A DNA stretch of 64,000 bases from Patescibacteria group bacterium (GCA_041649475.1 JBAZNA010000001.1:197022-261021); one strand, 5' to 3'. Shown: positions 2,730-57,026, numbered from the stretch's first letter. Translations and numbers: made by a program. The notes: generated from the sequence alone by a model not told the origin.

Positions 2730-3035
2730 ATGGCGTATGCAGAAAAAAATTTAATAGATAAATTACAAGATGAGATTAGGAATAAGAAGGATAAACAAAT
2801 GGAGGGGTTACGCAGGGCTTTTGAAATTTCTTTTTGGAAATATTGGGATGATCATAGTGAATATCCTAATCTTAATAATGACCAGGATGTTAATCTTTAT
2901 CTTGAGGGCCGTCCAGATTTAAAAGCTGCTGTTTTTAAACTGGATTTGGTTTTGCCTAGAGTGAAAGAAATTGCTTTTGAAATTCTTGAGAATTTAAGGA
3001 AAACAGGGGTAAGAAAAGGTGCGAAGAAGAAATAA
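2730..3035 (+). CDS. hypothetical small protein
   Basis: 101 aa ORF in host-like composition with no recognisable motif. Confidence 0.4.
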   Translation: MAYAEKNLIDKLQDEIRNKKDKQMEGLRRAFEISFWKYWDDHSEYPNLNNDQDVNLYLEGRPDLKAAVFKLDLVLPRVKEIAFEILENLRKTGVRKGAKKK

Positions 3036-10033: not shown

Positions 10034-10046
10034 GTTGCCTCCTATC

Positions 10047-10075
10047 TTGACAAAAAAATATTTTTAGTGTATTCT
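10047..10075 (+). promoter_or_regulatory. sigma70-like promoter (TTGACA -17- TATTCT) driving GC-rich cassette A
   Basis: Consensus -35 TTGACA, a 17-nt AT-rich spacer and -10 tattct. A structured GC-rich leader with a strong GAAGGAG ribosome-binding site lies downstream. Confidence 0.5.
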
Positions 10076-10149
10076 TGGTGATTATTCCTTAGGTAAGGAA
10101 GCCCGGACCATTCCGGTTCGGGTATGATGATAGAGGAAGGAGAAAAAAG

Positions 10150-10497
10150 ATGGGAATGCGCGCGAAGGACTGGGAGGCGGCCCAGGCCGTTTTCTTGAAA
10201 GAGGCCGGTGCCGACCCTGACCCCGACGATTCGTGGACCGTAGTTCGGTCGCCGAGTTTGCAGGAGCTTCTGCTGGCAAAGGAGCAGGAGTTCCCGGTTG
10301 AGCTCGAGCTCTCCGACGGCCGCAAGATGACCGTGTTCGTCGAGGATATCAAGGACCCCGACGCGCACGGCGAAGTGGAGGTGTACGTAATGTACGTCGC
10401 CAACGGCAACCGGCGCCGGCGGTACCTGCACTTCACCCCCGACGTCTACGAGCCCAGGGTCAACGTCTACCCCGAGCCCAAGGAATCCGTGGGCTGA
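10150..10497 (+). CDS. hypothetical protein, compositionally foreign GC-rich cassette A (115 aa)
   Basis: ATG preceded by a GAAGGAGAAAAAAG ribosome-binding site. Codon third positions are strongly G/C-biased, and the first 60 nt count about 63% GC against about 28-40% in neighbouring genes. Its own promoter is upstream and an intrinsic terminator is downstream. No recognisable domain. Confidence 0.6.
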   Translation: MGMRAKDWEAAQAVFLKEAGADPDPDDSWTVVRSPSLQELLLAKEQEFPVELELSDGRKMTVFVEDIKDPDAHGEVEVYVMYVANGNRRRRYLHFTPDVYEPRVNVYPEPKESVG

Positions 10498-10520
10498 CCC
10501 CACTTCCTCCCTCGTCTCAC

Positions 10521-10549
10521 GCCCAAGCATCTGCTTGGGCCTTTTTTTG
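10521..10549 (+). terminator. intrinsic terminator gcccaagcatctgcttgggc + T7
   Basis: 9-bp GC stem followed by ctttttttg. Confidence 0.7.
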
Positions 10550-10587
10550 TTGATTTTGTTATGGCTTTCGGGTAAGATACGAGCACT

Positions 10588-13500
10588 ATGCCCGACTTTG
10601 TTCACCTCCATGTCCACAGCCATTATTCGCTTTTAGATGGCCTGCCAAAAATTGACGAGCTAGTTAAGCATGCCAAAAGTTTGGGCATGACTGCCCTTGC
10701 CCTCACCGATCATGGTAATATGTATGGCGCCATTGAGTTTTATGAGCGGTGTCAGAAAGAGGGAATAAAACCGATCATCGGCATGGAGGCATACTTGGCT
10801 CCGGGCAGTCGTTTTGATAAAAATCAAAATGACAAGTATTATCATCTGGTGTTGTTGGCTTTGGATTATACCGGTTATAGAAATTTGATGAAGCTGGCTT
10901 CGCTGGCTCATCTGGAGGGGTTCTATTACAAACCCCGTGTTGATAAAGAACTTCTAAAACAATATCATGAAGGTTTGGTTGCTTCATCTGCCTGTTTTGG
11001 CGGCGAGATTCCTTGGATTTTGCGCAAAGAAGATAATTTTGAGAAAGCCAAAAAAGTGGCGTTGGAATACGAAGAAATTTTTGGCAAAGGAAATTTTTAT
11101 CTGGAACTGCAGGACTTGCCGGGTTTGGAAGGTCAGATGGAGATGAATACAAAATTAATTAAGCTTTCCCAAGATACTGGCGTCCCGCTTATTGTCACCC
11201 GTGACGTGCATTATTTGAAACCGGAGGACGCCGAAGCCCAGGATATTTTAACCTGCATCCGCGACGGCCGGACTTTGGATGAACCCAATCGCCAGACCAT
11301 GAATGCGGTTGATTGTTCAATGGCTAGCGTCAAAGAAATCGCCGGCCGCTTTAAACATATTCCTGAAGCATTGGAGAACACGGTTAAGATTGCCGAAAGA
11401 GCGAATCTGGTTTTAGAACTTAATAAATGGCATTTTCCGCCTCTTGAGCTTCCGGTCGGGCAGACCGCCGACAGTTATTTGCGCGAGCAGGTTTATGAAA
11501 GATTGCCGAAGCTGTTGCAGATAACCGAGGAGGTGAAAAAAAGAGTTGACTATGAGTTGGAAATTATCGCCAAAAAAGGTTATTCTCCGTATTTTTTAAC
11601 AGTTGCCGATTATGTGCAGTATGCGCGCGACCACGGCATTGCCGAAACGACCAGGGGCTCGGCTGCTGGTTCAATCGTTTCTTACGCTATAGGAATCGTC
11701 ACTGTTAATCCGCTGTATTTCAAATTGCCGTTTGAAAGATTTTTAAATCCATTCCGTCCCAGCCCGCCGGATATTGACGCGGACTTCGCCGACGACCGCC
11801 GCGACGACATGATTGCTTATGTCACGCAAAAATATGGTGCGGACAAAGTGGCGCAGATTATTACCTTCGGAACGATGATGGCGCGCGGAGCGGTGCGCGA
11901 TGTGGGCCGAGCGCTGGGCTATACCTATTCTTTTTGCGATCAGATTTCAAAAATGATTCCTTTTGGCGCGCAGGGTTTTCACATGAATATTGCCAAAGCC
12001 ATGGAGCTGGAGCCGGATTTAAAAAAATTATACGATCAAAATCCGCAAGCCCACCGTTTATTGGATTTGGCGCAAAAAGTGGAGGGCTGCGCCCGACACA
12101 CTTCCATACACGCGGCCGGAGTGGTGATTTCACCGACGCCGCTTACGGATTTTACTCCGGTTCAGCGCGAAACCGGCGGTGAGAGAATTACCACTCAATA
12201 TGAAATGCACGCGGTGGAGGCGGCTGGAGTTTTGAAAATGGACTTTTTGGGGATCCGCAATTTATCTATTTTGGGTCATGCCGTGGAAATTATAGAAAAA
12301 ACAACCGGCCAGAAAATTGATATCTACAAATTGCCCTGGGATGACAAAAAAACCTATGAAATGCTGGCGCGCGGTGAAACTATCGGTGTGTTCCAGCTTT
12401 CCGGATCTGGCATGACCAGATATTTGAAAGAATTAAAGCCGGCCAGCATCTTTGATATTATGGCCATGGTGGCACTGTTTCGCCCCGGGCCAATGGAATC
12501 AATTCCCGAATATATAAAAAGAAAAAATCATCCGGAACTGATTGAATATCTTGATCCGCGCATGGAAAATTATCTTGATCAGTCCCTGGGCTTGATTGTT
12601 TATCAGGACGACGTTTTGCTTACGGCTATAAATTTGGCCGGATACAATTGGGAGGAAGCGGATAAATTCAGAAAAGCGATGGGCAAGAAAATTCCGGAAG
12701 AAATGGCCAAGCAGAAAGAGAAATTTTTTAAGGGCTGCCGTGAATTCGGGCATTTGTCCGAAGCAAAAATCAACACCCTGTGGGAACGCATTGAGCCGTT
12801 TGCCGCTTATGGTTTTAACAAGGCCCATGCCTGCAGTTATGGAGTTGTGGCCTATCAGACCGCCTATCTGAAAGCTAATTTTCCGGTGCAGTATATGACC
12901 GCGATTTTGATTGCGGAAAGCGGCGACATTGATAAAGTGCCGGAAATTATTCATGAGTGCGAGAGAATCGGCATAAAGGTCTTACCGCCCGATGTTAATG
13001 AAAGTTTTAAAAATTTCGCCATGATTTCGCCGGAAGACGGATCCGAGCCGCACATTAGGTTCGGTTTAAACGGCATAAAAAATCTGGGCGAGCATATTGC
13101 CGAAGTGATTTACCGCGAACGCAAAGAACATGGCACGTATAAAGACCTGCAGGATTTGCTCACGCGTGTAAATGATAAGGATTTAAACAAAAAGTCCCTG
13201 GAAAGTTTGGCTAAATGTGGCGCGCTTGATTGTTTTGGCCATGACCGGGGATTGCTTTTGGCCAACACGGACAACCTTTTGGGTTTTGTCAGGCAGATGC
13301 ATGAGAAAACCCAATCAAACCAGAATTCGCTTTTTTCAGGCACAACGATTGATTTGTCCGCCAAAGTTCAGCTTAATCCGGCGCCCCTGGCCGATGAAGC
13401 CGACAAGCTGATTTGGGAAAAAGAATTGCTGGGACTCTTCGTCACTTCCCATCCATTTAAGTATTTTGAAAAAATTATGAACGGCGTGCTGACACCGATT

Positions 13501-15117: not shown

Positions 15118-15564
15118 TTATGGCCAGTTGAGTTCCGCCGGCATAGGCCAATCACTGGCGTCGAAACTCACGAATCCCGGCGTCCATTTGAACTTGGACG
15201 CTTCTCCCGGACCAGAAGTGCCCGTGAGCTCGTGAATTTTTTTAGAACTGAGCACCTTGAGCGGCGACATCTCTTTCGGCTCCGGGCTATCGATAGTGGC
15301 CTGGAGAGAATAACCAATCCCTTTCGTGGGATTGTAGAGGAGAAGTTGCGTGGCGACTTTTGCCCGTTTGTGCTCAAGGCAGTCCCACACCATCTTCAAG
15401 AGCGGCTTCTCCACTACGACCACAGGTTCATTATCCTCTGCAGTCAGAGCTGGGAATACACCCATCAGTCCGTGTTCGATCAGCAGTAGGTAACCGTACC
15501 GAAGCTGCCATCCGCTCAGATCCTTTTCGAAGATGCTTCCCAGCGCCGGTCCTTGTTTGCTCAT
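15118..15564 (-). CDS. hypothetical protein, GC-rich cassette B (148 aa)
   Basis: Start chosen at MSKQGPALG because it is preceded by TTGGAGGAAACC-ATG (GGAGG ribosome-binding site). The coding sequence is GC-rich, unlike the host. It lies 33 nt downstream of the 3' end of tRNA-Met on the same strand and is followed by a GC hairpin. No recognisable domain. Confidence 0.55.
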   Translation of the reverse strand: MSKQGPALGSIFEKDLSGWQLRYGYLLLIEHGLMGVFPALTAEDNEPVVVVEKPLLKMVWDCLEHKRAKVATQLLLYNPTKGIGYSLQATIDSPEPKEMSPLKVLSSKKIHELTGTSGPGEASKFKWTPGFVSFDASDWPMPAELNWP

Positions 15565-15597
15565 GGTTTCCTCCAAGATCGAGATCGTTTTCCCGAG

Positions 15598-18073: not shown

Positions 18074-18400
18074 TCACAGGACCACTTCTTCGTAGTAGTC
18101 GGCCCGCTCGTGGCTAGCGTAGGGGCTTGATTTGGCATCCTTGAGCGCAGCTGCGGCGAACGGTTCGTCTATGGTGACCTCGGCAACGTTCTCGCACTTG
18201 GCGATCAACAGCTGACAACCATCACAGCCGAATCCGGTCACGGTTGCCAGAACCAGCGCCTCCTTGATCTTCGGTACCCGGCCCTCTTTGCGGATGGCTT
18301 CGGCCACATCGGCCGCGTTTTCTCCACCGCAGTCGGTCCAGAACTTGAAAACAACCTCATCACCCTTGCGCACACTAACGAGTCCGGTTTTTCCGTGCAT
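18074..18400 (-). CDS. hypothetical protein, GC-rich cassette C (108 aa, contains a GCDGC Cys pair)
   Basis: The ATG is preceded by a perfect AAGGAGG ribosome-binding site that overlaps the TAA stop of the upstream FAD oxidoreductase gene. The coding sequence is strongly GC-rich. It has no promoter of its own and ends at the terminator at 18021-18052. Confidence 0.55.
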   Translation of the reverse strand: MHGKTGLVSVRKGDEVVFKFWTDCGGENAADVAEAIRKEGRVPKIKEALVLATVTGFGCDGCQLLIAKCENVAEVTIDEPFAAAALKDAKSSPYASHERADYYEEVVL

Positions 18401-29580: not shown

Positions 29581-29922
29581 CTAGCCGGCGGCGGAAGCGG
29601 CGATGGGGGCGATCTTGGGCTGGATGTCGATCACGGGGATCGGCTCGGGCAGACCGTCGAAGCGCTGGCGGAGCCAGTCGATCTCGGGCTCCGAGGCCTC
29701 GCCCATGAAGATCTCGATGTAGAACGTCCCCCTGATGAGGCCCTCGTACTTCAGCTTGAAGCCGGGGATCTCGTCGTCGAAGTCGGCCTTGTGCGGCCTG
29801 TTGACGTACCTGTTGAAGTCGTTGAGCGAGCAGTACCTGACGCTGCCGTCCACGAACTGGATCCGTACGGCCCTTGTCTGCAAGGTCGTGTCCGGGAACG
29901 TCATCAGCTTCTGGATCGGCAT
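29581..29922 (-). CDS. hypothetical protein, GC-rich cassette E (113 aa from MPIQKL)
   Basis: Start chosen at the methionine preceded by AAGGAGagggag. The ORF-track ORF extends to 29994 with an Arg-rich low-complexity N-terminus that is probably untranslated leader. The coding sequence is GC-rich, and both its 5' leader (about 105 nt) and its 3' UTR (about 90 nt) are long and GC-rich. Confidence 0.5.
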   Translation of the reverse strand: MPIQKLMTFPDTTLQTRAVRIQFVDGSVRYCSLNDFNRYVNRPHKADFDDEIPGFKLKYEGLIRGTFYIEIFMGEASEPEIDWLRQRFDGLPEPIPVIDIQPKIAPIAASAAG

Positions 29923-30037
29923 CTCCCTCTCCTTGGGACTACGAGCTCGTGTGACCATCTTGTTATGCCTCCCTTGTTTCCGTGTTGGGCCCAATGCCCC
30001 TAAACTTGTTGGCCTTGTCCAGGCCGTGATGGGCTAA

Positions 30038-34984: not shown

Positions 34985-35389
34985 ATGAATACAGAAATGG
35001 GTTCAGTAGAATCTATTCCAGGTGAAAATAGAAAAGATTTATCCTTAGGGATATCCGACCAGGCAGAAGCTAAGGACTACATTAATAAATTACTGGCGGG
35101 CGGGGTTAAGCCAAAAATTTCAGTGCCAAAGAGATTTTTGGAAAATGTTTTAAAGGAAGGTTCGCTTTCCGCAAAGAAATCATGGATACCAAAATTTTCA
35201 ATTTTAGTGGGGACCTTGAATATTGATCCATATTCATATAGCACAGATAAGGAAAGAGTGATATTTGAAGTGACTAATCCGGAAGTGCCGGTTGAACCGC
35301 GATTTACCGGCAAAGATAAAAAATTTCACGGAATAATATATTTTCCGGAAGGACACATTGATCTAAAAGATTTAAAGAGAGTTAATTAA
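34985..35389 (+). CDS. hypothetical protein
   Basis: 134 aa in host-like composition with no motif recognised. Confidence 0.4.
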   Translation: MNTEMGSVESIPGENRKDLSLGISDQAEAKDYINKLLAGGVKPKISVPKRFLENVLKEGSLSAKKSWIPKFSILVGTLNIDPYSYSTDKERVIFEVTNPEVPVEPRFTGKDKKFHGIIYFPEGHIDLKDLKRVN

Positions 35390-41855: not shown

Positions 41856-41884
41856 TTGACCAATTGTCTTTTTTATGCTAAAGT
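41856..41884 (+). promoter_or_regulatory. sigma70-like promoter TTGACC -17- TAAAGT for cassette F
   Basis: ttgacc aattgtcttttttatgc taaagt, followed by the leader hairpin cctgccagagaaaggcagg and an AAGGAGG ribosome-binding site. Confidence 0.5.
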
Positions 41885-41931
41885 ATGTGGTTCCTGCCAG
41901 AGAAAGGCAGGTCAGAAAGGAGGCCTCTCGG

Positions 41932-42312
41932 ATGACACGGGTCATGAGTTTGATGGCTTTCTACGCGACTTATCGTCTCTTAAAGGTCGCGTACCGTGCG
42001 ACCGAGAGACAGCTTAGGCTATTCTTCGTCCCCAAGCCGGGGTGCGAGGGGGCCTACGAGGTGGATGAGCAAATCTTCGCCAAGGTTCGGACGCTCATCG
42101 TCAATTCCAGGTCGTTTCAGACCGAAATCTACCCGCTGAACGCCAGTGACGTGGGGGAAGATTTCCGCCTTGGCGACCAGGATTTCACCGGCTCGGTGAT
42201 GGTCTGGCTGAAGGAAGTAGATCCTTTAGACGCACTGTTTACCGACAGAATCAAGGAGGTTGTGTTCGGAGAGGAGAAAGAGTATCGCTTTCAGTGCGGT
42301 TCCCGCAACTAG
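41932..42312 (+). CDS. hypothetical protein, GC-rich cassette F (126 aa from MTRVMSL)
   Basis: Start chosen at the methionine 8 nt after the AAGGAGG ribosome-binding site. The ORF-track start at 41875 lies inside the leader. The coding sequence is GC-rich, and a GC hairpin follows the stop codon. Confidence 0.55.
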   Translation: MTRVMSLMAFYATYRLLKVAYRATERQLRLFFVPKPGCEGAYEVDEQIFAKVRTLIVNSRSFQTEIYPLNASDVGEDFRLGDQDFTGSVMVWLKEVDPLDALFTDRIKEVVFGEEKEYRFQCGSRN

Positions 42313-42406: not shown

Positions 42407-42973
42407 ATGTTAAGCGAAGCATCAGCAAGAGCGGCAAAAGCCAGACAATTTCGCGCTAAAAATGCTGAAGTAACCGTACCTCATAGAGAGGCCGCCAGAA
42501 AACTTAAAGCCCAGATGAAGGAAGAAAAACAGGCAACAGCAAGAAATATGGTTCGTGAGGAAATTGAAACTTTGGCTGACAAATTGGAGGCGGAAGGAGA
42601 TAAAGCAATAAATGGAGTTTTAGGCACCATAATTGAAAATGGCGATGTTGATGATTTGGATGTTTTAAAAATGTTAGACGGTTTCTGTTATCTGAAAAGA
42701 ACAGAATTAGAACATGACAAAGTTGATAGAAGTATTTTGATGAGAGATGATACCTTGAGGGCGCAGGTGAAAAAAGCTTTAGAAAATTATAGCACCGGTG
42801 TTAAAAACCAAAAGAAAATTTTTGACGCCAGTGCGGGATTTGAAACCGGAAAGGAATACGCGCTTAAAGAAGGTGAAGACGCCATCAATGAACTTATGAG
42901 CCGGGCCCGTCAAAATATTGACGGTTTGATAACCGACAGAATCAACGAGATGGCTAACGAAGGAAAAAATTAA
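42407..42973 (+). CDS. hypothetical protein
   Basis: 188 aa, charged and helical, in host-like composition. Confidence 0.45.
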   Translation: MLSEASARAAKARQFRAKNAEVTVPHREAARKLKAQMKEEKQATARNMVREEIETLADKLEAEGDKAINGVLGTIIENGDVDDLDVLKMLDGFCYLKRTELEHDKVDRSILMRDDTLRAQVKKALENYSTGVKNQKKIFDASAGFETGKEYALKEGEDAINELMSRARQNIDGLITDRINEMANEGKN

Positions 42974-44259
42974 TGTCCGGTTTTTATCACATCACAACCT
43001 TCGGCTGTCAGATGAATAAAAATGACTCCGAGCGTCTTTCGGCTCTGTTAAATTCCCTTGGTTTACAAAACACAATTCGGCCGGAACAGGCCGATTTGTT
43101 GTTTATAAATACCTGCAGTGTCCGCCAGCATGCGGAAGACAGGGTGTTTGGCTTGGTGAGGGAATGGCAAAAATTACGGTCGGCCAAACCGAATTTGATT
43201 ATCGGCGTTACCGGCTGTATGCCGGGCAGAGACAAGGACGGAAAGCTGAAAGAAAAAATTCCGGGAGCGGATTTATTTTTTGGCATTGAAGAAATGGTGA
43301 TGTTGCCGAAATGGATCAGGGGATTAAATCCGGATTTGATTGCGCCAGCCAAGGGTTTAAGCGACTATCTTTTGATTAATCCGGTGAGAGAAAATAAAGC
43401 CAAGGCGTTTATTACGATTGCTACCGGCTGTAATAATTTTTGTACCTATTGCGTAGTGCCTTATGCGCGTGGCCGGGAAAAGAACAGGCCGGCTAAAGAT
43501 ATTTTAAATGAGATTAAGACCGCGGCTGTGGATGGCTGTAAAGAGGTAACTCTGCTGGGTCAGACCGTAAATAATTATAAAGATGGAGATTATGACTTTG
43601 TTGATTTGCTGGAGGATGTGAATAAAATTAGCGGGATTGAACGAATAAATTGGACGGCTCCGGATCCGCAGTATTTTAACGATCGTCAGATTGAGGCCTT
43701 AAAATTGCCCAAGCAAATGAATTATTTGCATTTACCAGCGCAAAGCGGGGATAATGAGATTTTAAGAAAAATGAATCGCAAATATACGCGTGAAGATTAT
43801 ATTAATTTGGTGAAAAAAATTCGCGCCGCTCGGCCGGAAATCGCTTTGGGCACTGATTTGATCGTTGGCTTTTGCGGAGAAACCGAAGAACAATTCCAAA
43901 ACACTTTGGATTTATATAAACAATGCGATTTTGATATTTCCTATCACGCCATGTATAGTTCAAGAAGCGGAACAGCCGCGGCCAAGGCGTTTAAAGATGA
44001 TGTGCTCCAGGAAGAAAAAAAGCGCCGTTGGCGCGCGGTTCAGGATTTGATGGAAGAAATTGTTTATCGGAAAAATCAAAAATATTTAAATCAGACAGTT
44101 TCGGTTTTGGTTGATTCGTGCGAAGAGGGGGTATGTAGCGGAAATTCCAGCGAGATGAAACTGGTTCAGTTTCCGGGCAATGAAGATTTAATTGGCCAGA
44201 TTATTGATGTTAAAATCACCAGGCCGGAGATGTGGGTGTTGAGAGGAGTGCTAGTTTAA
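42973..44259 (+). CDS. miaB: tRNA-i6A37 methylthiotransferase MiaB
   Basis: UPF0004 N-terminal domain (TFGCQMN), a radical-SAM CxxxCxxC motif (CNNFCTYC) and a TRAM domain, 428 aa. Confidence 0.85.
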   Translation: MSGFYHITTFGCQMNKNDSERLSALLNSLGLQNTIRPEQADLLFINTCSVRQHAEDRVFGLVREWQKLRSAKPNLIIGVTGCMPGRDKDGKLKEKIPGADLFFGIEEMVMLPKWIRGLNPDLIAPAKGLSDYLLINPVRENKAKAFITIATGCNNFCTYCVVPYARGREKNRPAKDILNEIKTAAVDGCKEVTLLGQTVNNYKDGDYDFVDLLEDVNKISGIERINWTAPDPQYFNDRQIEALKLPKQMNYLHLPAQSGDNEILRKMNRKYTREDYINLVKKIRAARPEIALGTDLIVGFCGETEEQFQNTLDLYKQCDFDISYHAMYSSRSGTAAAKAFKDDVLQEEKKRRWRAVQDLMEEIVYRKNQKYLNQTVSVLVDSCEEGVCSGNSSEMKLVQFPGNEDLIGQIIDVKITRPEMWVLRGVLV

Positions 44260-44286
44260 TTAGAATATTATTTGGTAGAGGGTACA

Positions 44287-45174
44287 CTAAAGTTTGATAC
44301 TTTTGAGAGATATTTTTAAATATAAATTTGAAGTCTTGTTTATTAAGAATTTTAATGTTTTGGGCAATACCCTGTCTAATAATGCAAGAAACGAGATAGT
44401 ATATATTAAGGTTAAAAAATTATTTTTAAGTATCGTGATTATAAAATTTGGTTTATAATCCATCTTCCAGAATATTATATAAAGAATAAAATGTAATATG
44501 CAGAAGAATGCTATTGGCCAGAATGGAGCTTTAAAACCAAGTAGATCCCATTTTTCTGGCTCACCGAATTGGTTATTACTTTCGGGCGAGTTATAAATTT
44601 TATCATTCTTCATAATCCTTGACCAAATATCAGTGAATTTGGTTCCAGATATTATAAGTAGTAACCATTGAAAGCAGTCAGATATAAATTTTATAATATC
44701 GGTTATAATTACCCTCCAAAATAATAATTTTAACCTAAGTTTAAAACCCTTTAGTGGCATGGTTGGTTTTGTATGAAGCAAGTATAGCTCGTCGAGTAAC
44801 ATATTTGCTGTTATTTCTTTATTTTTTTTATAAAATTTGTTCAAGATAACATCATAAAAATACTCATCATTTGAAGTAAAATCTATCGGGCCAGTAACTT
44901 TTTTTATTTTATCTTGGTTACTCAATGATATGTAAGATCCTTTGTCATCTTCTTTAAGTTTTCCATAGCTAACCCTTATGGATAGGGGTTTAATGTTGCC
45001 ATCCTTCAGTACATTTTCATTACTGATGTAAATATAGAATATTGATCCCCAATCGTCTGAACCCATTTTTCTAATTATACTAAAGCCAAATTTGCAATCT
45101 TTTAAAGGAGTGAGATTCAAAAATAATCCATTAGTTCCTATATTAAAATCTTTTATGAAATCTTGATTTTCCAT
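44287..45174 (-). CDS. hypothetical membrane protein encoded by an AT-rich insert between miaB and miaA
   Basis: 295 aa. The N-terminal half of about 190 aa is soluble and Lys/Asn/Ile-rich. The C-terminal part carries about three predicted transmembrane helices. GC is visibly lower than in the flanking genes. Confidence 0.5.
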   Translation of the reverse strand: MENQDFIKDFNIGTNGLFLNLTPLKDCKFGFSIIRKMGSDDWGSIFYIYISNENVLKDGNIKPLSIRVSYGKLKEDDKGSYISLSNQDKIKKVTGPIDFTSNDEYFYDVILNKFYKKNKEITANMLLDELYLLHTKPTMPLKGFKLRLKLLFWRVIITDIIKFISDCFQWLLLIISGTKFTDIWSRIMKNDKIYNSPESNNQFGEPEKWDLLGFKAPFWPIAFFCILHFILYIIFWKMDYKPNFIITILKNNFLTLIYTISFLALLDRVLPKTLKFLINKTSNLYLKISLKSIKL

Positions 45175-45291
45175 ATATAAATTTTATGTTAATAAATTGT
45201 AATCAATTTTTGCTTATTTCCATTAAAACTGCTAGAATGTTTAAAGTTATTCAGATTATATAGTAATTGTGTAGTTAAGTCAAAAATTCAC

Positions 45292-46188
45292 ATGGACCGA
45301 ACCCTGCCAAAATTAATCGTCATCCTCGGTCCCACCGGCTCCGGGAAAACGGATCTGGGGATTGCGGTTGCCAAAAAGTATAATGGCGAAATTATTTCGG
45401 CTGATTCAAGACAGATTTACAAACAAATGAACATCGGCACGGCCAAGCCCAAGGGGGAGTGGCAGGACGGCGCTTATACTGTAAACGGCGTTCCGCACTA
45501 TCTAATGGATATAATCAATCCGGATGAAAATTTCACGGTGGCGGATTTTAAAGAGCAGGCCACTTTCCATATCAATGACATTTTAAAACGTAAAAAATTA
45601 CCTATTATTGTCGGCGGCACCGGATTGTATATTCAATCAATTGTAGATAATTTGGATATTCCTAAAGTGGCGCCCAGCACCGAGCTAAGATCAGAATTAG
45701 AAAAGAAAACCCAGCCGGAACTTATAGAAATATTAAAACAACTTGATCCGGAATCTGCCGAAAAAATAGATTTAAAAAATCCGCGCCGGGTTTTGCGGGC
45801 GCTGGAAGTGGCAATGATAACCGGTGAATCATTTTTTAATCAAAGAAAGAAGCAAGTGCCACTTTATGACGCCAAAGAATTTGGTATCAACATTTCCAAA
45901 GAGGAATTATATAGACGACTGGACGCCAGAGTGGACCAACAAATCAAAGACGGGCTGGTTGAAGAAGTAAAAAATTTATCTCAAAAATACAGTTGGGATT
46001 TGCCCAGCATGAGCGGAATTGGTTATAAACAGATCGGCTGCTTCCTGCGTGGCGAAATGACTTTGGAACAGGCAATTGAAGTTTTAAAGAGAGATACCAG
46101 AAGATATGCCAAGCGCCAAATGACCTGGTTTAAAAAGGATCAGAGAATAAATTGGATTACTGATTTAGAAGAATTTCATCTCCCATGA
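45292..46188 (+). CDS. miaA: tRNA dimethylallyltransferase MiaA
   Basis: P-loop GPTGSGKT and the conserved SADSRQIYK motif, 298 aa. Confidence 0.9.
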   Translation: MDRTLPKLIVILGPTGSGKTDLGIAVAKKYNGEIISADSRQIYKQMNIGTAKPKGEWQDGAYTVNGVPHYLMDIINPDENFTVADFKEQATFHINDILKRKKLPIIVGGTGLYIQSIVDNLDIPKVAPSTELRSELEKKTQPELIEILKQLDPESAEKIDLKNPRRVLRALEVAMITGESFFNQRKKQVPLYDAKEFGINISKEELYRRLDARVDQQIKDGLVEEVKNLSQKYSWDLPSMSGIGYKQIGCFLRGEMTLEQAIEVLKRDTRRYAKRQMTWFKKDQRINWITDLEEFHLP

Positions 46189-47971
46189 AATCAAGACGCT
46201 GACCTGTCACAGTGTCATCGGCCTGAACATGAACCTTGGAAACAAGCGTATTTTGGGTAGGATTGAGTTTGCTTAAGATCAAGGTAAATGGCATAGCCAG
46301 GGTATCGGCGTTTTCCGGCATTTCCGGAATCGTCCAGGTAATTTTTTTAGCCGCGCTGTCAAAATTGAAAGTTCCGGCCGGAGCGGATGGCTGACCTTGC
46401 AAACTAACATCGCCGTAAACATCAGCCGTTAAAGTCACATTCTTCAAAGCATGAAAGTGGTTGGTCAGCACCCAGTTGATTTGATGGGTTTTGTTGTCGC
46501 CGGAAGCGCTGTCGCGCGGATCAAATTTTAAATCGGAATTTAAAGTGATCACAATCAGATTGCTGGAAATGGTGTGGCTGGCGCCGGTGGAATCAGTATA
46601 AGAGACCTCGGCGGCGGCATTTATTTGAAAGGCGGATAAATTGGAAAGATCAAAATTTTCTGAAGTTTTTATCGGAATCTTTGTATCAATGGTAATTTCA
46701 TCTCCTTTGTTAACCGCTCCCAAACCGGCAATCTGTGTTTTGCTAAAGGTCATCTCTCCGCGTCTTATAGTGTCGCTGATTTGTACGCCTTTGATGTCCG
46801 CGTTATATTTATCAACTTCCTGCGACCAATCCAAAACACTCTGCCGGTTTAAAGATGGCGCGTCCAAATTCAATTTAACAATCGCGTTTTTTAGATTACT
46901 GTTGCTGGTGTTTTTAAGATCAATCGTGATGTTAAGCATGTCCCCGGGCTGGGCATTGAAGTTAGCCATTGTTCCGTTCATGGTTAAACTGAATCCCAAA
47001 TCACTTTGCAAAAGTTCTGTGTTAAAGTCGGTTTTGGCCAATTGGAAAACTTTATCATTGGCCGAAGAACTCAAGATACCCGAAATTGTGTTCGCGGACG
47101 AAGAGCTGGAGAATTTGCCGAATAATTTAAAAGTGTAACCGGTGTTGGCTGTGGTTGAAGGGCCTGCGGCCAAATCAATTGACCATTTTTTATTTTTGTT
47201 TAAAACCGGTGTGGCTGAAGCGATGTGAAAATTAGCAGGCACTGAAGGAATTAAATCTAGTTTGCTGACTCGGGACGGGTTTTCTTGCTTGACGGTAAAG
47301 TCATACTCAACCAGATTGCCGATGGCCGCTTTGTCCGGGCCGGCTATAGTCAGAGAGAACGGAGAATTGGTGGTTTTAACTTCTAAAATCGCGGTTTTCT
47401 GAAATTCAGAATTAAAATTTTCCGGTTGATAGGTTAAGAAAGCCCGCCAGGATTGGCTCTGGTCGGTTGAGCCATAAGTGATGCCGGTGATGGTGATGGT
47501 TCCAACTTGGAAAGGGGACAGCTTGCCCAGATCCCATTGGGTATGGCCGGTGTTTTGCGCGTCCGGATTGCTGGAAATGAAGATAAAACCAGCCGGATAT
47601 TCAACATTTAAGACCGCGCTTTCAAGCGACAAGTTTTGGTTGTTTTTATAATCAATTTGGTAGGTGGTGGTTACTCCGGCCATGATGTTATCTGGACCGT
47701 TTACACTAAGATTGACTTTGTCGGCGGAGAATTTTCCGTTTCCGGGCATTAGGAAAAAGCCGATCCAGGCAATGGCGGCGAGTACCGCGCAAAAAATAAT
47801 AAAAATAACCAGAGTTTTTAAAAAAGAACGGCCTTTTTTAATTTTAATTTTTTTCATATCAGGCAAATTACCATGGTCATCTTCATAAATTGAAACCAGT
47901 TGTTTTTCAATCTGTGAGTTTTTAACACTGGCTAATTTTTTTGTCGTCATCCTTTTGCGCGGCGTAGGCAT
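46157..47971 (-). CDS. hypothetical single-pass membrane protein with a large extracytoplasmic beta-rich domain
   Basis: 604 aa with a Lys-rich cytoplasmic N-terminus and one transmembrane helix. It overlaps the miaA 3' end by 32 nt. Confidence 0.5.
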   Translation of the reverse strand: MPTPRKRMTTKKLASVKNSQIEKQLVSIYEDDHGNLPDMKKIKIKKGRSFLKTLVIFIIFCAVLAAIAWIGFFLMPGNGKFSADKVNLSVNGPDNIMAGVTTTYQIDYKNNQNLSLESAVLNVEYPAGFIFISSNPDAQNTGHTQWDLGKLSPFQVGTITITGITYGSTDQSQSWRAFLTYQPENFNSEFQKTAILEVKTTNSPFSLTIAGPDKAAIGNLVEYDFTVKQENPSRVSKLDLIPSVPANFHIASATPVLNKNKKWSIDLAAGPSTTANTGYTFKLFGKFSSSSSANTISGILSSSANDKVFQLAKTDFNTELLQSDLGFSLTMNGTMANFNAQPGDMLNITIDLKNTSNSNLKNAIVKLNLDAPSLNRQSVLDWSQEVDKYNADIKGVQISDTIRRGEMTFSKTQIAGLGAVNKGDEITIDTKIPIKTSENFDLSNLSAFQINAAAEVSYTDSTGASHTISSNLIVITLNSDLKFDPRDSASGDNKTHQINWVLTNHFHALKNVTLTADVYGDVSLQGQPSAPAGTFNFDSAAKKITWTIPEMPENADTLAMPFTLILSKLNPTQNTLVSKVHVQADDTVTGQRLDFMGDEILLNQ

Positions 47972-47979
47972 ATAGGTAA

Positions 47980-50382
47980 TTAATTTATTTTATTATCTTG
48001 ATTTAAAATCATGCTCCAAATCATGTCTTGATTTAGAAGCTGATTGTTGATTGTGGCTCCGTTGGAAGCGAGGGTTATGTTGGTTCCATCTTTCCAAACC
48101 GGATGCCAGAGGTCGGGGTAGATTATTTGATTGTCAAAGTTGCTGTCAATGCCGGATTGATTCTGGACTACCAGCTGGTATTTTGAACTCGGCACTGAAG
48201 ATTGGAAAATCCCGGCCCATTTGTTTGCCGGTTTATTTTGTTCCAGGTTAAATGCTTTAAACGGCAATTTGTAAACAAACTGCACTTCACTGGTTTGGCC
48301 CGGCAGAGTGGCAATCCAATTTCCAAAAGCGGTTTTACTGAATTCATTGGTTACCCTGGTGCCTGAAACCGGGTCAATGTTGATTTCTTTTTCAAATTCA
48401 TTAAGCATTTTATCCTCTGTAGTCCACTTATCGGGAACTTTTAAGTGCTGTTCATCGGGCCAGGAAAAGCCGCTGGCGCTAACGAGTTCACTGCCTTGCG
48501 GAACATAGACCCTGATATAATCAATATTCGTCTGACCGTATAATTGTTCTCCGGATACTCCGGTGTGTTCTCTTTTTACCACCACGCTGTCTAAAATTGT
48601 TCCGTCCGGCTGAACCACTGCCTGGTGGCTGATTGTCTGTTTAATTTTAGCATCGCTTTTTTGACCCTGGATGTTGGTATTTACCACCATCAGGTAATCT
48701 TGTCCGGCCGAGGTCTTGAGTATCTTTCCGCCCCAGCCGAAATTATTTATTGTCTCTTCGGTGTTGTTGTTGGTGAAATAGGCCTGGACCTCTTTTTGTT
48801 GTAAGGCCTCATGCAAATTTGTGAGAATCGGCAGAATATCCTGCGGTTTTATGTTTTTTAAATAATCCACAAACATCGGCGCCAGATCCGATAAAATTTG
48901 TTTTGGTTTGTTGTTGGCTTTGTCTGGTCCGTATTCAACGATATTTTGAATGGCCGGCAGGGCATTAGCCGCGGTTAAAGTGAGGTTGTATTTTTGGGCG
49001 GTAACCGGCCCGATAATAGAAAGAATGCGGTTTAAAACTGTGGCATTAATGGCAATGACGCCATCGGCCGTGATGTTGCGGCTGTGTCTGTAAAACCAGA
49101 GCATGTTTTGCGCGCTGGCAGGAAAATCCGGGAACCAATTTGAATCCTGAAATTCCCAGCGCTTATTGATAAATAACAGGGGGGTGGGCGGTTCTACCGA
49201 TTCAGAAAGCTGGCCTTGCAAATCATAAGATCCGCCGGCCGGAACATCCATGTTCGTAATTTTACCATCCACCACGTCCAGCAAAGCGAAACTGCCGGCA
49301 AAGCCCCCGGTCGCCCTTAGTTCTGCCGGATTTTGGAAAACCAGCAAATATCTGCGTAAACCCTTGCCGCCGAAAATTTCCTGCAAGGATTGATTTAAAT
49401 TTGATAAATTTTCCAGATCGCCGGAGAAAGCCGTGAAAATGGTTTTTAATTGGTTGAAAGAATTTTGATACTCAAAAGGCAGAACCTTCGGGTCAACCTG
49501 ACCTAAATTTTTTAGGGCCTCATTGTAGGTGGGAATGGCATACTGCAGATATGCGTTTAAGATGTTCATGCTCTCGGTGAGGGTGGAACTGGGAGAGTTT
49601 TTAATTTCCGCCAATCCTTTGACCATATAAGTGTTGCCGAGAGCAATACTTTGTCCGGCCAGAATTAGTTTTTGTCGGCTTTGAATTTCATTACCAATTA
49701 TTGGTAAAGTTGAAGCGATAGTTTGCACAAGCTGGTGGTTGCTGTTTAGAGTCGCAAGCGCGGCATCAAAGTTTTTCAAAGCATCGCCCAGTGATTTTTG
49801 GGCGTCATCAAGATTGCCGGCCATAATATCGGTGGTGGAATCCTGCAAGGCGATAAAACCTTGGGTGCTGTTTCCAGCCACTTTGTTTACGGTTGATTGC
49901 AGGTCGGTGTAATAGGACTGCGCGCTTGAGGGGAGAATGAATACCAGAGCAATAAGCGTGGCCAAGGCCACGGCGCGGCGGAGGGTGACGTGTTTAAAAT
50001 AATTCTTTTTGATTTTTGGTTTGTGAATTTTAGGAATTTTGGGGGAAAATGAAGGAATCTTAATTGGGGCCTGGTTTTTTATTTTAGGGGCTTCTTCCGG
50101 TTTATGGTGAAAATAATATTCCTGATTTGTGAGTTCTTCTTCCGGAGCGGCAGTGTCAACATTTTTCCAAATGTCATGATGCTGTTCTTTTAAATTGACA
50201 ACATGCGGTGAATCAGGGGAGTTGTAATTGACATGGTGGACAAAAAATTTAAACGGCTGGTTATCCCGTTTTTTTTCCTGGAGTTGTTCCGGACAGGTGG
50301 ATTTGTTGTGCCCAACTCTTTGGCAAATTGCACAGCGCCTAAGCTGGGGTTTTTTGGTTGTTTTTGGCATTTTTTCAAGCAC
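47980..50382 (-). CDS. DUF4012-like membrane protein with an N-terminal CCHC zinc-knuckle motif
   Basis: N-terminus CAICQRVGHNKSTC (C-x2-C-x4-H-x4-C), one transmembrane helix, and a DUF4012-type signature ELRATGGFAGSFALLDV. Confidence 0.55.
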   Translation of the reverse strand: MLEKMPKTTKKPQLRRCAICQRVGHNKSTCPEQLQEKKRDNQPFKFFVHHVNYNSPDSPHVVNLKEQHHDIWKNVDTAAPEEELTNQEYYFHHKPEEAPKIKNQAPIKIPSFSPKIPKIHKPKIKKNYFKHVTLRRAVALATLIALVFILPSSAQSYYTDLQSTVNKVAGNSTQGFIALQDSTTDIMAGNLDDAQKSLGDALKNFDAALATLNSNHQLVQTIASTLPIIGNEIQSRQKLILAGQSIALGNTYMVKGLAEIKNSPSSTLTESMNILNAYLQYAIPTYNEALKNLGQVDPKVLPFEYQNSFNQLKTIFTAFSGDLENLSNLNQSLQEIFGGKGLRRYLLVFQNPAELRATGGFAGSFALLDVVDGKITNMDVPAGGSYDLQGQLSESVEPPTPLLFINKRWEFQDSNWFPDFPASAQNMLWFYRHSRNITADGVIAINATVLNRILSIIGPVTAQKYNLTLTAANALPAIQNIVEYGPDKANNKPKQILSDLAPMFVDYLKNIKPQDILPILTNLHEALQQKEVQAYFTNNNTEETINNFGWGGKILKTSAGQDYLMVVNTNIQGQKSDAKIKQTISHQAVVQPDGTILDSVVVKREHTGVSGEQLYGQTNIDYIRVYVPQGSELVSASGFSWPDEQHLKVPDKWTTEDKMLNEFEKEINIDPVSGTRVTNEFSKTAFGNWIATLPGQTSEVQFVYKLPFKAFNLEQNKPANKWAGIFQSSVPSSKYQLVVQNQSGIDSNFDNQIIYPDLWHPVWKDGTNITLASNGATINNQLLNQDMIWSMILNQDNKIN

Positions 50383-52785: not shown

Positions 52786-53130
52786 TTAATATAACTTTTT
52801 GTAACTTTCAAAATGTATCTTATCGTCTGTAAAAATTTCTATAACTTTATACTTTCCCTTAGTATAGCTTTCATTATCTTGTTTAAAATGTGTTGCCTCA
52901 ATTATGATTATGCCGGCCTTTGGTTTGGAGAGGTTTTCATTACCGGTTGTTTCAAGGAGCGGCAGTTCGCCATCCAGCCAATACAAACGTTGTCCCTTTT
53001 TTAAAAATGGATAGATCTCTCCGGTAATCAATTTTTCCGGAATGCACTCTTCAATTTTACGATTTCCAGCACGATATTCAGAAATATTTCGCAGGGCCAG
53101 ATCAGGATTAAATTCAAATTTAATACCCAT
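52786..53130 (-). CDS. hypothetical protein in glycan locus
   Basis: 114 aa with no motif recognised. Confidence 0.4.
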   Translation of the reverse strand: MGIKFEFNPDLALRNISEYRAGNRKIEECIPEKLITGEIYPFLKKGQRLYWLDGELPLLETTGNENLSKPKAGIIIIEATHFKQDNESYTKGKYKVIEIFTDDKIHFESYKKLY

Positions 53131-56594: not shown

Positions 56595-56600
56595 TAACCC

Positions 56601-56994
56601 ATTCATAGCGGATGATCGAGCCGACTTAGTCGGCTAGGAAAGTCCGAACACCCAAGATGGCAGTGGGTAACGCCCACCGCTACGGTGGCAACGCCGTGGT
56701 TGGGAAAGTGGCACAGAGACAATTCTAACCCCGACAAGCTCGGGGTAAAAGGTGAAAAGTGTATGGGGGATTTGGTTCTCGAGACCAAAGCTACTATACT
56801 CGGCTGATAGCAATATCAGTTCGTGCTAAACCCTGCCTGGTGCAAGAGCAGCGTTTCGCGGCGCAAAACCGCGGTTCGAAAAGTTCGCTCGCTAGAACGC
56901 GTTAGCAATAACGCGTCCAGATAAATGATCGTCACCTCGCCCCATTTTTAAACAAAATGGTGCGGAGCACAAAATTCGGCTTATAGCTATGAAT
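56601..56994 (+). ncRNA. rnpB: RNase P RNA (bacterial type A)
   Basis: P1 pairing ttcatagc/gctatgaa. P2 gagccga...tcggctt and a P3 hairpin ccgacttagtcgg. P4 5' strand AGGAAAGTCCG and 3' strand ACAAAATTCGGCTTA. Conserved GGGTAACGCC, GTGGCACAGAGACAAT and GGTAAAAGGTGAAAAGTG blocks match the E. coli M1 RNA pattern. Confidence 0.8.
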
Positions 56995-56995
56995 A

Positions 56996-57026
56996 AAAAA
57001 GACGACCCGCAAGGGCCGTCTTTTAA
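56996..57026. terminator. bidirectional intrinsic terminator (gacgacccgcaagggccgtc) flanked by A6 and T4
   Basis: aaaaaagacgacccgcaagggccgtctttt. It ends rnpB (+) and the convergent 57040-58578 gene (-). Confidence 0.65.

Follow-up and report, generated by a model that had tools for sequence, protein, structure and literature searches.

Stand-alone accessory genes that were acquired horizontally, that lie between genes adjacent in relatives and that differ from these in nucleotide composition are described from phages as morons, a concept that reportedly goes back to Juhala and Hendrix in 2000. Known anti-phage proteins that act at the membrane include the transmembrane (TM) effectors of the CBASS, Pycsar and retron systems and the membrane abortive-infection (Abi) proteins. 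Patescibacteria, or the Candidate Phyla Radiation (CPR), have tiny genomes with few recognised defence systems, and their accessory genes are mostly unannotated. Here we describe ORF295, an open reading frame (ORF) for a predicted membrane protein of 295 amino acids (aa), which lies antisense between the tRNA-modification genes miaB and miaA in a 64-kb stretch of DNA from a Patescibacteria group bacterium (GCA_041649475.1 JBAZNA010000001.1:197022-261021; this whole stretch is called the window below). Very probably, ORF295 is a real gene of foreign origin, inserted in one lineage and belonging to a mobile family. Probably it serves as a mobile accessory gene of the defence type and has no part in tRNA modification.

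Like morons and other single-gene islets, the insert consists of one gene of foreign composition with a promoter-like site, is placed between genes that are adjacent in relatives, and leaves both flanks intact. Unlike morons, ORF295 lies in a chromosome of Patescibacteria, and neither a factor-independent terminator nor phage relatives of it were found. The likeness to membrane anti-phage effectors lies in the small size of the family proteins, in their architecture of a soluble domain with few TM helices, in the stand-alone gene, and in the occurrence of family members in restriction-modification (RM) and defence islands and in mobile elements. The differences are that ORF295 matches neither PADLOC families nor folds in PDB or BFVD, and that no signalling-enzyme partner recurs beside the family.

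The miaB-miaA junction and its insert

The insert and its flanks have the following structure (positions in the window):

42973-44259, + strand: miaB, intact, left flank (TIGR01574, 423 bits with a cut-off of 355; Radical_SAM, UPF0004 and TRAM domains)
44260-45291: the whole AT-rich insert, 1,032 bp, from the miaB stop codon to the miaA start codon; the lowest-GC stretch of the window
44260-44286: 27-nt spacer where miaB and ORF295 converge, from stop codon to stop codon
44287-45174, - strand: ORF295, an intact 295-aa gene with an ATG start (ORF call), member of a large unnamed family of ~300-aa membrane proteins
44290-44745, - strand: C-terminal part of ORF295, codons 144-295, with a Lys-rich tail (hydropathy of the protein and the family, AlphaFold model)
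44746-45174, - strand: N-terminal soluble alpha+beta domain of ORF295, codons 1-143, an antiparallel sheet and the helix 123-134
45175-45291: divergent spacer of 117 nt between ORF295 and miaA, GC 0.197
45255-45283, - strand: promoter-like site TTGACT-17-TATAAT, 11 of 12 consensus matches, 81 nt upstream of the ORF295 start codon
45292-46188, + strand: miaA, intact, right flank (TIGR00174, 296 bits with a cut-off of 149; IPPT domain of Pfam)

An earlier description of this DNA (the original prediction) had placed a very AT-rich membrane-protein gene antisense between miaB and miaA, converging on miaB with a 27-nt gap. Its coordinates and gene calls were correct, both flanking genes pass their equivalog cut-offs, and the gap was confirmed.

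To place the junction among relatives, we used a MiaA scan of species-representative genomes, which yielded 80 loci, nearly all from Patescibacteria. A tblastn search with the window proteins showed that the block thrS ... miaB-miaA is widely conserved in these loci and, in keeping with the premise that miaA and miaB are often adjacent, the gap between them is at most 60 nt in 33 of the 44 loci having both genes. In the closest relative found (L004; 73% identity in ThrRS and 63% in MiaA), where the downstream genes for DUF11 and DUF4012 proteins are syntenic, the miaB stop codon overlaps the miaA start codon as ATGA and there is no insert. Therefore the 1,032-bp insert spans exactly the interval from the miaB stop to the miaA ATG, and both genes are intact. 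No homologue of ORF295 was found by tblastn in the 80 MiaA-centred loci, including the 44 with miaB. Since miaB and miaA overlap in L004 and lie no more than 60 nt apart in most other loci, we consider the insert a lineage-specific insertion. Its proposed status as an accessory, horizontally acquired gene is thus borne out, as ORF295 is absent from the junction in all 44 related loci; conservation at this position with host-like composition, which would have spoken for a resident gene, was not seen in the synteny comparison of these loci.

The composition of the gene points in the same direction. The GC content of ORF295 is 0.279 (0.29, 0.26 and 0.28 at the three codon positions), compared to 0.430 in miaB and 0.418 in miaA, which agrees with the claim that it is more AT-rich than either neighbour. 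Among all 888-bp segments of the window (mean 0.435, standard deviation 0.039), the minimum of 0.270 falls inside ORF295, about four standard deviations lower than the mean. Amino-acid content is responsible for approximately two thirds of this deficit, as the ORF295 protein recoded in the host codon usage would have GC 0.337 against the observed 0.279. The codon-level AT bias exceeds what amino-acid content accounts for, with a fraction of A/T-ending codons of 0.72 in ORF295 and 0.54-0.57 in its neighbours.

A functional tie of ORF295 to tRNA modification, in which its protein might regulate MiaA or MiaB or be their partner at the membrane, has its sole support in the position between the two genes. 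We regard this explanation as very improbable and effectively refuted, given that the gene is missing from the 80 MiaA-centred loci, that neither miaA nor miaB occurs in the 15 other genomic contexts of its family, and that it lies on the opposite strand and has a foreign composition.

The junction has received other genes in related genomes. L005 and L006, which rank second and third among the relatives in MiaA identity, have 2.2 and 5.2 kb of other small genes with host-like GC between miaB and miaA (L005:3763-6000 and L006:845-6000). Because of these other inserts, we suggest that the miaB-miaA junction is a recombination hotspot flanked by core genes. Some of the junction genes appear to be common to L005 and L006, as judged by eye from the translations; these include a ~130-aa 'ILITFSDP...' protein and, on the opposite strand, a 211-aa lipoprotein-like gene.

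The 1.03-kb AT-rich module comprises one gene and its upstream promoter-like site, set down exactly between the miaB stop and the miaA start, and we regard it as the chromosomal equivalent of a phage moron. The consensus match TTGACT-17-TATAAT suggests that the module may carry its own promoter; the site is predicted only, and in total the region has no more such sites than shuffled sequences do. The start codon of ORF295 is not preceded by an evident Shine-Dalgarno sequence, and no terminator-like hairpin was found in the 27-nt spacer or otherwise 3' of ORF295. A search of Rfam gave no match in or near the insert. As a side effect, the insertion would uncouple miaA from miaB and expose miaB to convergent transcription. 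Because an overlap of the L004 type has been lost, the 117-nt spacer would have to supply the transcription and translation signals of miaA.

The ORF295 protein family

The original prediction had called the protein an orphan without a recognisable family. As far as curated libraries are concerned this still stands, as ORF295 has no match in Pfam, NCBIfam, PADLOC, PHROGs or the PDB sequences, and none of 101 family members matches Pfam. Yet it is not an orphan: a profile search recovered 423 homologous clusters (defined at 50% identity) at E <= 1e-3, 306 at E <= 1e-10 and 138 at E <= 1e-30, nearly all of them 285-320 aa long and aligning end to end. ORF295 itself scores 325 bits against the family profile over its full length and is present in a single copy in the window. 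In a word-indexed search, the identical NCBI entry is the hypothetical protein WC526_01230 [Patescibacteria group bacterium], encoded on a 963-kb contig, and the relatives found comprise three full-length proteins at 53-55% identity and one at 28%; with one alignment of the family, the word-indexed protein search found eight proteins, and with another, a scan of metagenomes found six loci. Clusters at 90% identity contain one to three members each.

Long ORFs arise easily in very AT-rich sequence, and this, together with the missing Shine-Dalgarno sequence, could be taken to mean that ORF295 is not a gene, or one in decay, and owes its length to the AT-richness of the spacer. The chance of this is negligible, and the explanation is effectively refuted by the full-length alignment to a 101-sequence family, in which ORF295 keeps every near-invariant residue (G30-F31, P96, H134, G143, R147, G177, N251, F253, L254 and Y258). 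Moreover, the ratio of nonsynonymous to synonymous substitution rates (dN/dS) ranges from 0.08 to 0.14 among sequences of the closest clade and from 0.07 to 0.17 when these close relatives are compared with ORF295, and the predicted structure is confident. These observations exclude the lack of coding signal that had been allowed for. Hence ORF295 is a real gene under selection.

Leucine (13%), isoleucine (12.5%), lysine (12%), phenylalanine (8.5%) and asparagine (7%) are prominent in the protein. Its N-terminal half is soluble and rich in Lys, Asp, Asn and Ile, and three hydrophobic segments follow at residues ~150-177, 217-240 and 245-271; the same three appear in the mean hydropathy profile of the family. 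The predicted layout of a soluble N-terminal domain followed by about three C-terminal TM helices is consistent with this hydropathy. In codons 1-143, the conserved residues are G30-F31-S32, Y70-G71, P96-x-D98, H134-x-K136-P-T138 and G143, and in codons 144-295 they are R147, G177, H228, N251, F253, L254, Y258 and P271. We considered H134-x-K136 as a phospholipase-D HKD motif and rejected this reading because there is no aspartate at the required spacing.

AlphaFold modelled the protein with a predicted local distance difference test (pLDDT) score of 92.6 and a predicted TM-score (pTM) of 0.83 when given 101 homologues, and with a pLDDT of 54 when given five sequences. In the model, the N-terminal part forms an antiparallel sheet with strands between residues 18 and 121, followed by the helix 123-134, while the C-terminal part has one long helix (144-176) and one short helix (183-193), a loop with a beta-hairpin (208-217), and the hydrophobic helices 218-237 and 243-289. 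Across the family, the Lys/Arg charge per sequence is +4.5 before helix 144 and +5.7 in the C-terminal tail, and the 177-217 loop is neutral; this pattern is compatible both with three TM helices and with a TM hairpin plus an amphipathic helix. The fold comparison covered PDB and the viral structures of BFVD. Foldseek returned nothing below E = 0.1 and no query-normalised TM-score above 0.25 in PDB, and no match at E <= 1e-3 in BFVD, so that this check, which had been proposed with the original prediction, revealed no convincing structural neighbour in either.

Genomic contexts of family members

We recovered 16 independent contexts of the family, every one at a different site. These unrelated positions support the claim of an accessory gene. 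An all-against-all BLASTP comparison of ORFs within 4 kb of a member at the 16 loci found no recurrent partner gene; the only genes that recur near members are the housekeeping zf_Tbcl and NUDIX, twice each. In all 13 loci checked, the GC content of the member (0.21-0.34) is below that of the rest of the locus (0.30-0.70). The smallest difference, 0.284 against 0.301, is seen in L002, a short and uniformly AT-rich contig. At the other end, the member at L094:1146-2036 (JGI 3300067033 Ga0606629_0003782), flanked by atpC and a UvrD/PDDEXK helicase gene, has GC 0.33 and a third-position GC (GC3) of 0.34 in a genome of GC ~0.70, where the GC3 of its neighbours is 0.86-0.99. The AT-rich spacer upstream of this member contains a 13-nt inverted repeat, ATGATCCGGTCAC / GTGATCGGATCAT.

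By plain tally, an RM, defence-type or element gene lies within one gene of the member in 7 of the 14 contexts with enough flank to be assessed:

L091: member 3 nt upstream of type III Mod (PADLOC, 2e-112), then Bflower, HEPN RiboL-PSP and type III Res
L090: member, then an EcoRI-like methyltransferase and a GmrSD_N/HNH type II restriction enzyme
L087: member directly after a GmrSD (HEC-06) gene
L001: member preceded by a NYN nuclease gene and followed by an 821-aa ORF with motifs resembling those of S-adenosylmethionine (SAM) methyltransferases, found by eye
L095: member 5 nt after an N6_Mtase/Eco57I/S-subunit gene, in a co-directional cluster with a ResIII helicase, KilA-N and SLFN_AlbA_2
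L099: member after a MORC-like GHKL ATPase, on a contig with a primase, AAA_25 and a serine recombinase
L100: member overlapping the end of an AAA_11/AAA_12/MTES_1575 helicase-nuclease gene, with a tyrosine integrase two genes upstream

The methyltransferase label of the 821-aa ORF in L001 rests on motifs seen by eye because a BLASTP comparison with the L095 methyltransferase gave no significant alignment, and only a motif-I-like stretch is shared (ILDRCAGTG and VLDPACGTG). The L100 contig also has a weak Terminase_2 match. The 4-fold beta-flower (Bflower) and HEPN RiboL-PSP proteins of L091, which are situated between Mod and Res of the type III RM system, occupy L091:5527-6575.

In the three closest relatives (L001-L003, 53-55% identity), a conserved element of ~45 nt, TTTTTGCCACATCGCCTAACACGGTATATCCGATTCGCG..., directly follows the stop codon. 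It begins with GCCTAAC, which resembles an inverse core, and the copies in L002 and L003 share 94% identity, while the adjacent gene has a synonymous divergence (dS) of 1.1. GCCTAAC and GTTAGGC represent the inverse-core and core consensus of integron attC sites. The L002 gene is preceded, at a distance of 18 nt, by an imperfect palindrome of 98 nt, GCCTAAC...GTTAGGC (L002:18-118). Of its two strands, the bottom one folds better (-22.1 kcal/mol, z = -4.2) and forms an R-box stem and an L-box stem with 3 unpaired nucleotides as a spacer between them; there is a second such palindromic site at ~2380-2462 (z = -5.8). On short contigs from metagenomes, a repeated 48-nt half-site was also observed behind small low-GC genes that follow one another, as at L003:633-680 and 1917-1964.

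These elements raise the question of whether ORF295 came as the gene cassette of an integron, entering at a secondary site and losing its attC, a route that would be compatible with any function. Like the integron cassettes of unknown function (gcu), ORF295 is a compact single-ORF unit, and its L002 relative has the RYYYAAC/GTTRRRY palindrome upstream and, as in L001 and L003, the GCCTAAC element after the gene. Integron cassettes are also known to carry phage-defence genes (bioRxiv 10.1101/2024.07.02.601719). Unlike such cassettes, the window copy has neither an attC site nor room for one, as the 27 nt between ORF295 and miaB are too short to hold it. In the window, no copy of the GCCTAAC-containing motif was found at up to three mismatches. 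A strict attC scan of the window and 15 family loci, with a shuffle background of ~1 per Mb, detected only the first L002 site, and none in the window or the remaining loci. No integron integrase was seen on any contig, and in L002 and L003 the best pairing partners of the half-sites that follow the gene lie on the far side of another ORF, an arrangement that departs from the canonical attC. We therefore consider the integron route improbable for ORF295 itself; the attC-like sites are a possible route for one clade and do not explain the window copy.

Some other features of the window were noted. Directly downstream of miaA are two genes for large surface or membrane proteins, DUF11 (604 aa, 46157-47971, - strand) and DUF4012 (800 aa, 47980-50382, - strand), which are syntenic in L004 and L006 at 39-49% identity. 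Between thrS and miaB there are a 145-aa ORF (41875-42312) with unusually high GC (0.54; GC3 0.70) and a 188-aa ORF (42407-42973), Lys/Glu/Ala-rich and probably coiled-coil, whose last base is the first base of miaB. As neither has a tblastn match in the 80 related loci, the thrS-miaB spacer is also lineage-specific. Four ORFs on the - strand (29581-29994, 18074-18400, 10042-10623 and 15118-15576) have GC 0.54-0.62 and GC3 up to 0.90, compared to 0.435 in the genome; these small high-GC ORFs may be spurious or may be foreign genes. Three small genes of 101-134 aa with GC 0.33-0.36, located between housekeeping genes (2730-3035, +; 34985-35389, +; 52786-53130, -), may be further acquired islets. 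Finally, a full-length bacterial class A RNase P RNA was identified at 56600-56999 (+ strand; 175 bits, Rfam).

Possible functions and significance

In the explanation that we favour, the family travels between genomes as a single gene, and its members occur repeatedly in or beside RM and other defence islands and integrative elements. The cytoplasmic N-terminal domain might serve as a sensor or interaction module, and the C-terminal helices, with the conserved polar residues H228, N251 and Y258, might act on the membrane, making the protein an exclusion or abortive-infection-type effector. For a role of ORF295 in conflict, defence or exclusion, our confidence falls somewhat short of even; a membrane-perturbing mechanism is more doubtful still. 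The earlier interpretation is thus supported in part: the family is associated with defence islands, as half of the assessable contexts of relatives are near defence genes, while ORF295 itself matches no family of PADLOC-DB v2 at E <= 1. As it has neither such a match nor an adjacent defence gene, the defence role is deduced from the neighbourhoods of its relatives. One of the 101 family members matches the PADLOC candidate PDC-M50A marginally (E = 1.7e-4), a resemblance that ORF295 and the others do not share and that we treat as a lead only.

Several observations weigh against the favoured explanation. The other 100 family members have no PADLOC match at E <= 1. No defence, integrase or phage gene adjoins ORF295 in the window, where its neighbours are miaB, miaA, thrS and the DUF11/DUF4012 surface proteins, and a phmmer search of the window with one tyrosine integrase (from L100), a query of low sensitivity, gave no match. 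The search for insertion scars or flanking repeats around the insert revealed only short AT-rich repeats at the level expected by chance. By the positive-inside rule, a two-TM hairpin with an amphipathic helix is at least as good as three TM helices. Moreover, about half of the contexts are housekeeping neighbourhoods (L084, L089, L094, L097 and L101), including NUDIX/EF-P, HAD/zf_Tbcl, atpC/UvrD and PBP/IleRS, in addition to unassigned genes, and the shared low-GC islands could mean common integration hotspots and not a common function.

The last two points would fit an acquired membrane protein of ordinary physiology, serving the envelope, transport or episymbiotic attachment, with defence neighbours reflecting shared hotspots. 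This explanation, which also draws on the non-defence, host-GC inserts at the L005 and L006 junctions and on the lack of a catalytic or defence-type domain in library searches of ORF295, seems to us rather unlikely. Several relatives lie at operon-like distances of 3-8 nt from RM or helicase-nuclease genes or overlap them; and since family members are persistently far more AT-rich than their hosts and form 90%-identity clusters of only one to three, they appear to turn over rapidly, which is unusual for physiological genes. Somewhat less likely again is that ORF295 is non-defence cargo of a mobile element, such as a superinfection- or entry-exclusion protein that remained alone when its prophage or integrative element was lost or recombined away. 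The moron-like anatomy, with a promoter-like site and foreign composition between genes that abut in relatives, is what such cargo would look like, and so are the recombinase, primase and AAA_25 of the L099 contig and the integrase and weak terminase match of L100. However, no relatives of the family were found in IMG/VR, in INPHARED (50,697 phage records, tblastn) or in PLSDB (72,556 plasmids), none of the 101 members matches PHROGs at E <= 1e-3, BFVD has no similar structure, and beside the window copy there are no other element genes or att-like repeats. In the same searches, no sign was seen of the phage-derived origin that had been offered as an alternative.

We tentatively propose, as a broader statement that is on the whole somewhat unlikely, that ORF295 stands for a hitherto undescribed family of wide distribution (more than 400 clusters at 50% identity), whose proteins are encoded by single genes, act at the membrane against phages or in exclusion, and have a fold absent from PDB. 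The family would circulate among uncultured bacteria, Patescibacteria included, in the form of a minimal AT-rich module, attach to a variety of defence systems (type I, II and III RM, GmrSD, MORC-like and helicase-nuclease), and travel as an integron-like cassette in at least one lineage.

The case shows how one foreign gene has entered an overlapping gene pair with neither flank damaged. Insertions that produce moron-like islets in hotspots are nothing unusual, and it is the gene family that is of interest here: a sizeable and structurally confident family has newly surfaced, with no match in Pfam, NCBIfam, PHROGs or PDB and one marginal PADLOC match among 101 members. If the attC-like sites beside close relatives are real, integron-type cassette traffic would reach a gene pool that is shared with CPR genomes. 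The GC of the family stays at 0.21-0.34 even where the genome has 0.70, a striking sign of continual turnover by horizontal transfer that none of the current explanations covers in full. The neighbours of the family, namely RM, GmrSD, NYN, MORC-like and helicase-nuclease genes and integrases, make it a candidate for a new defence or exclusion function.

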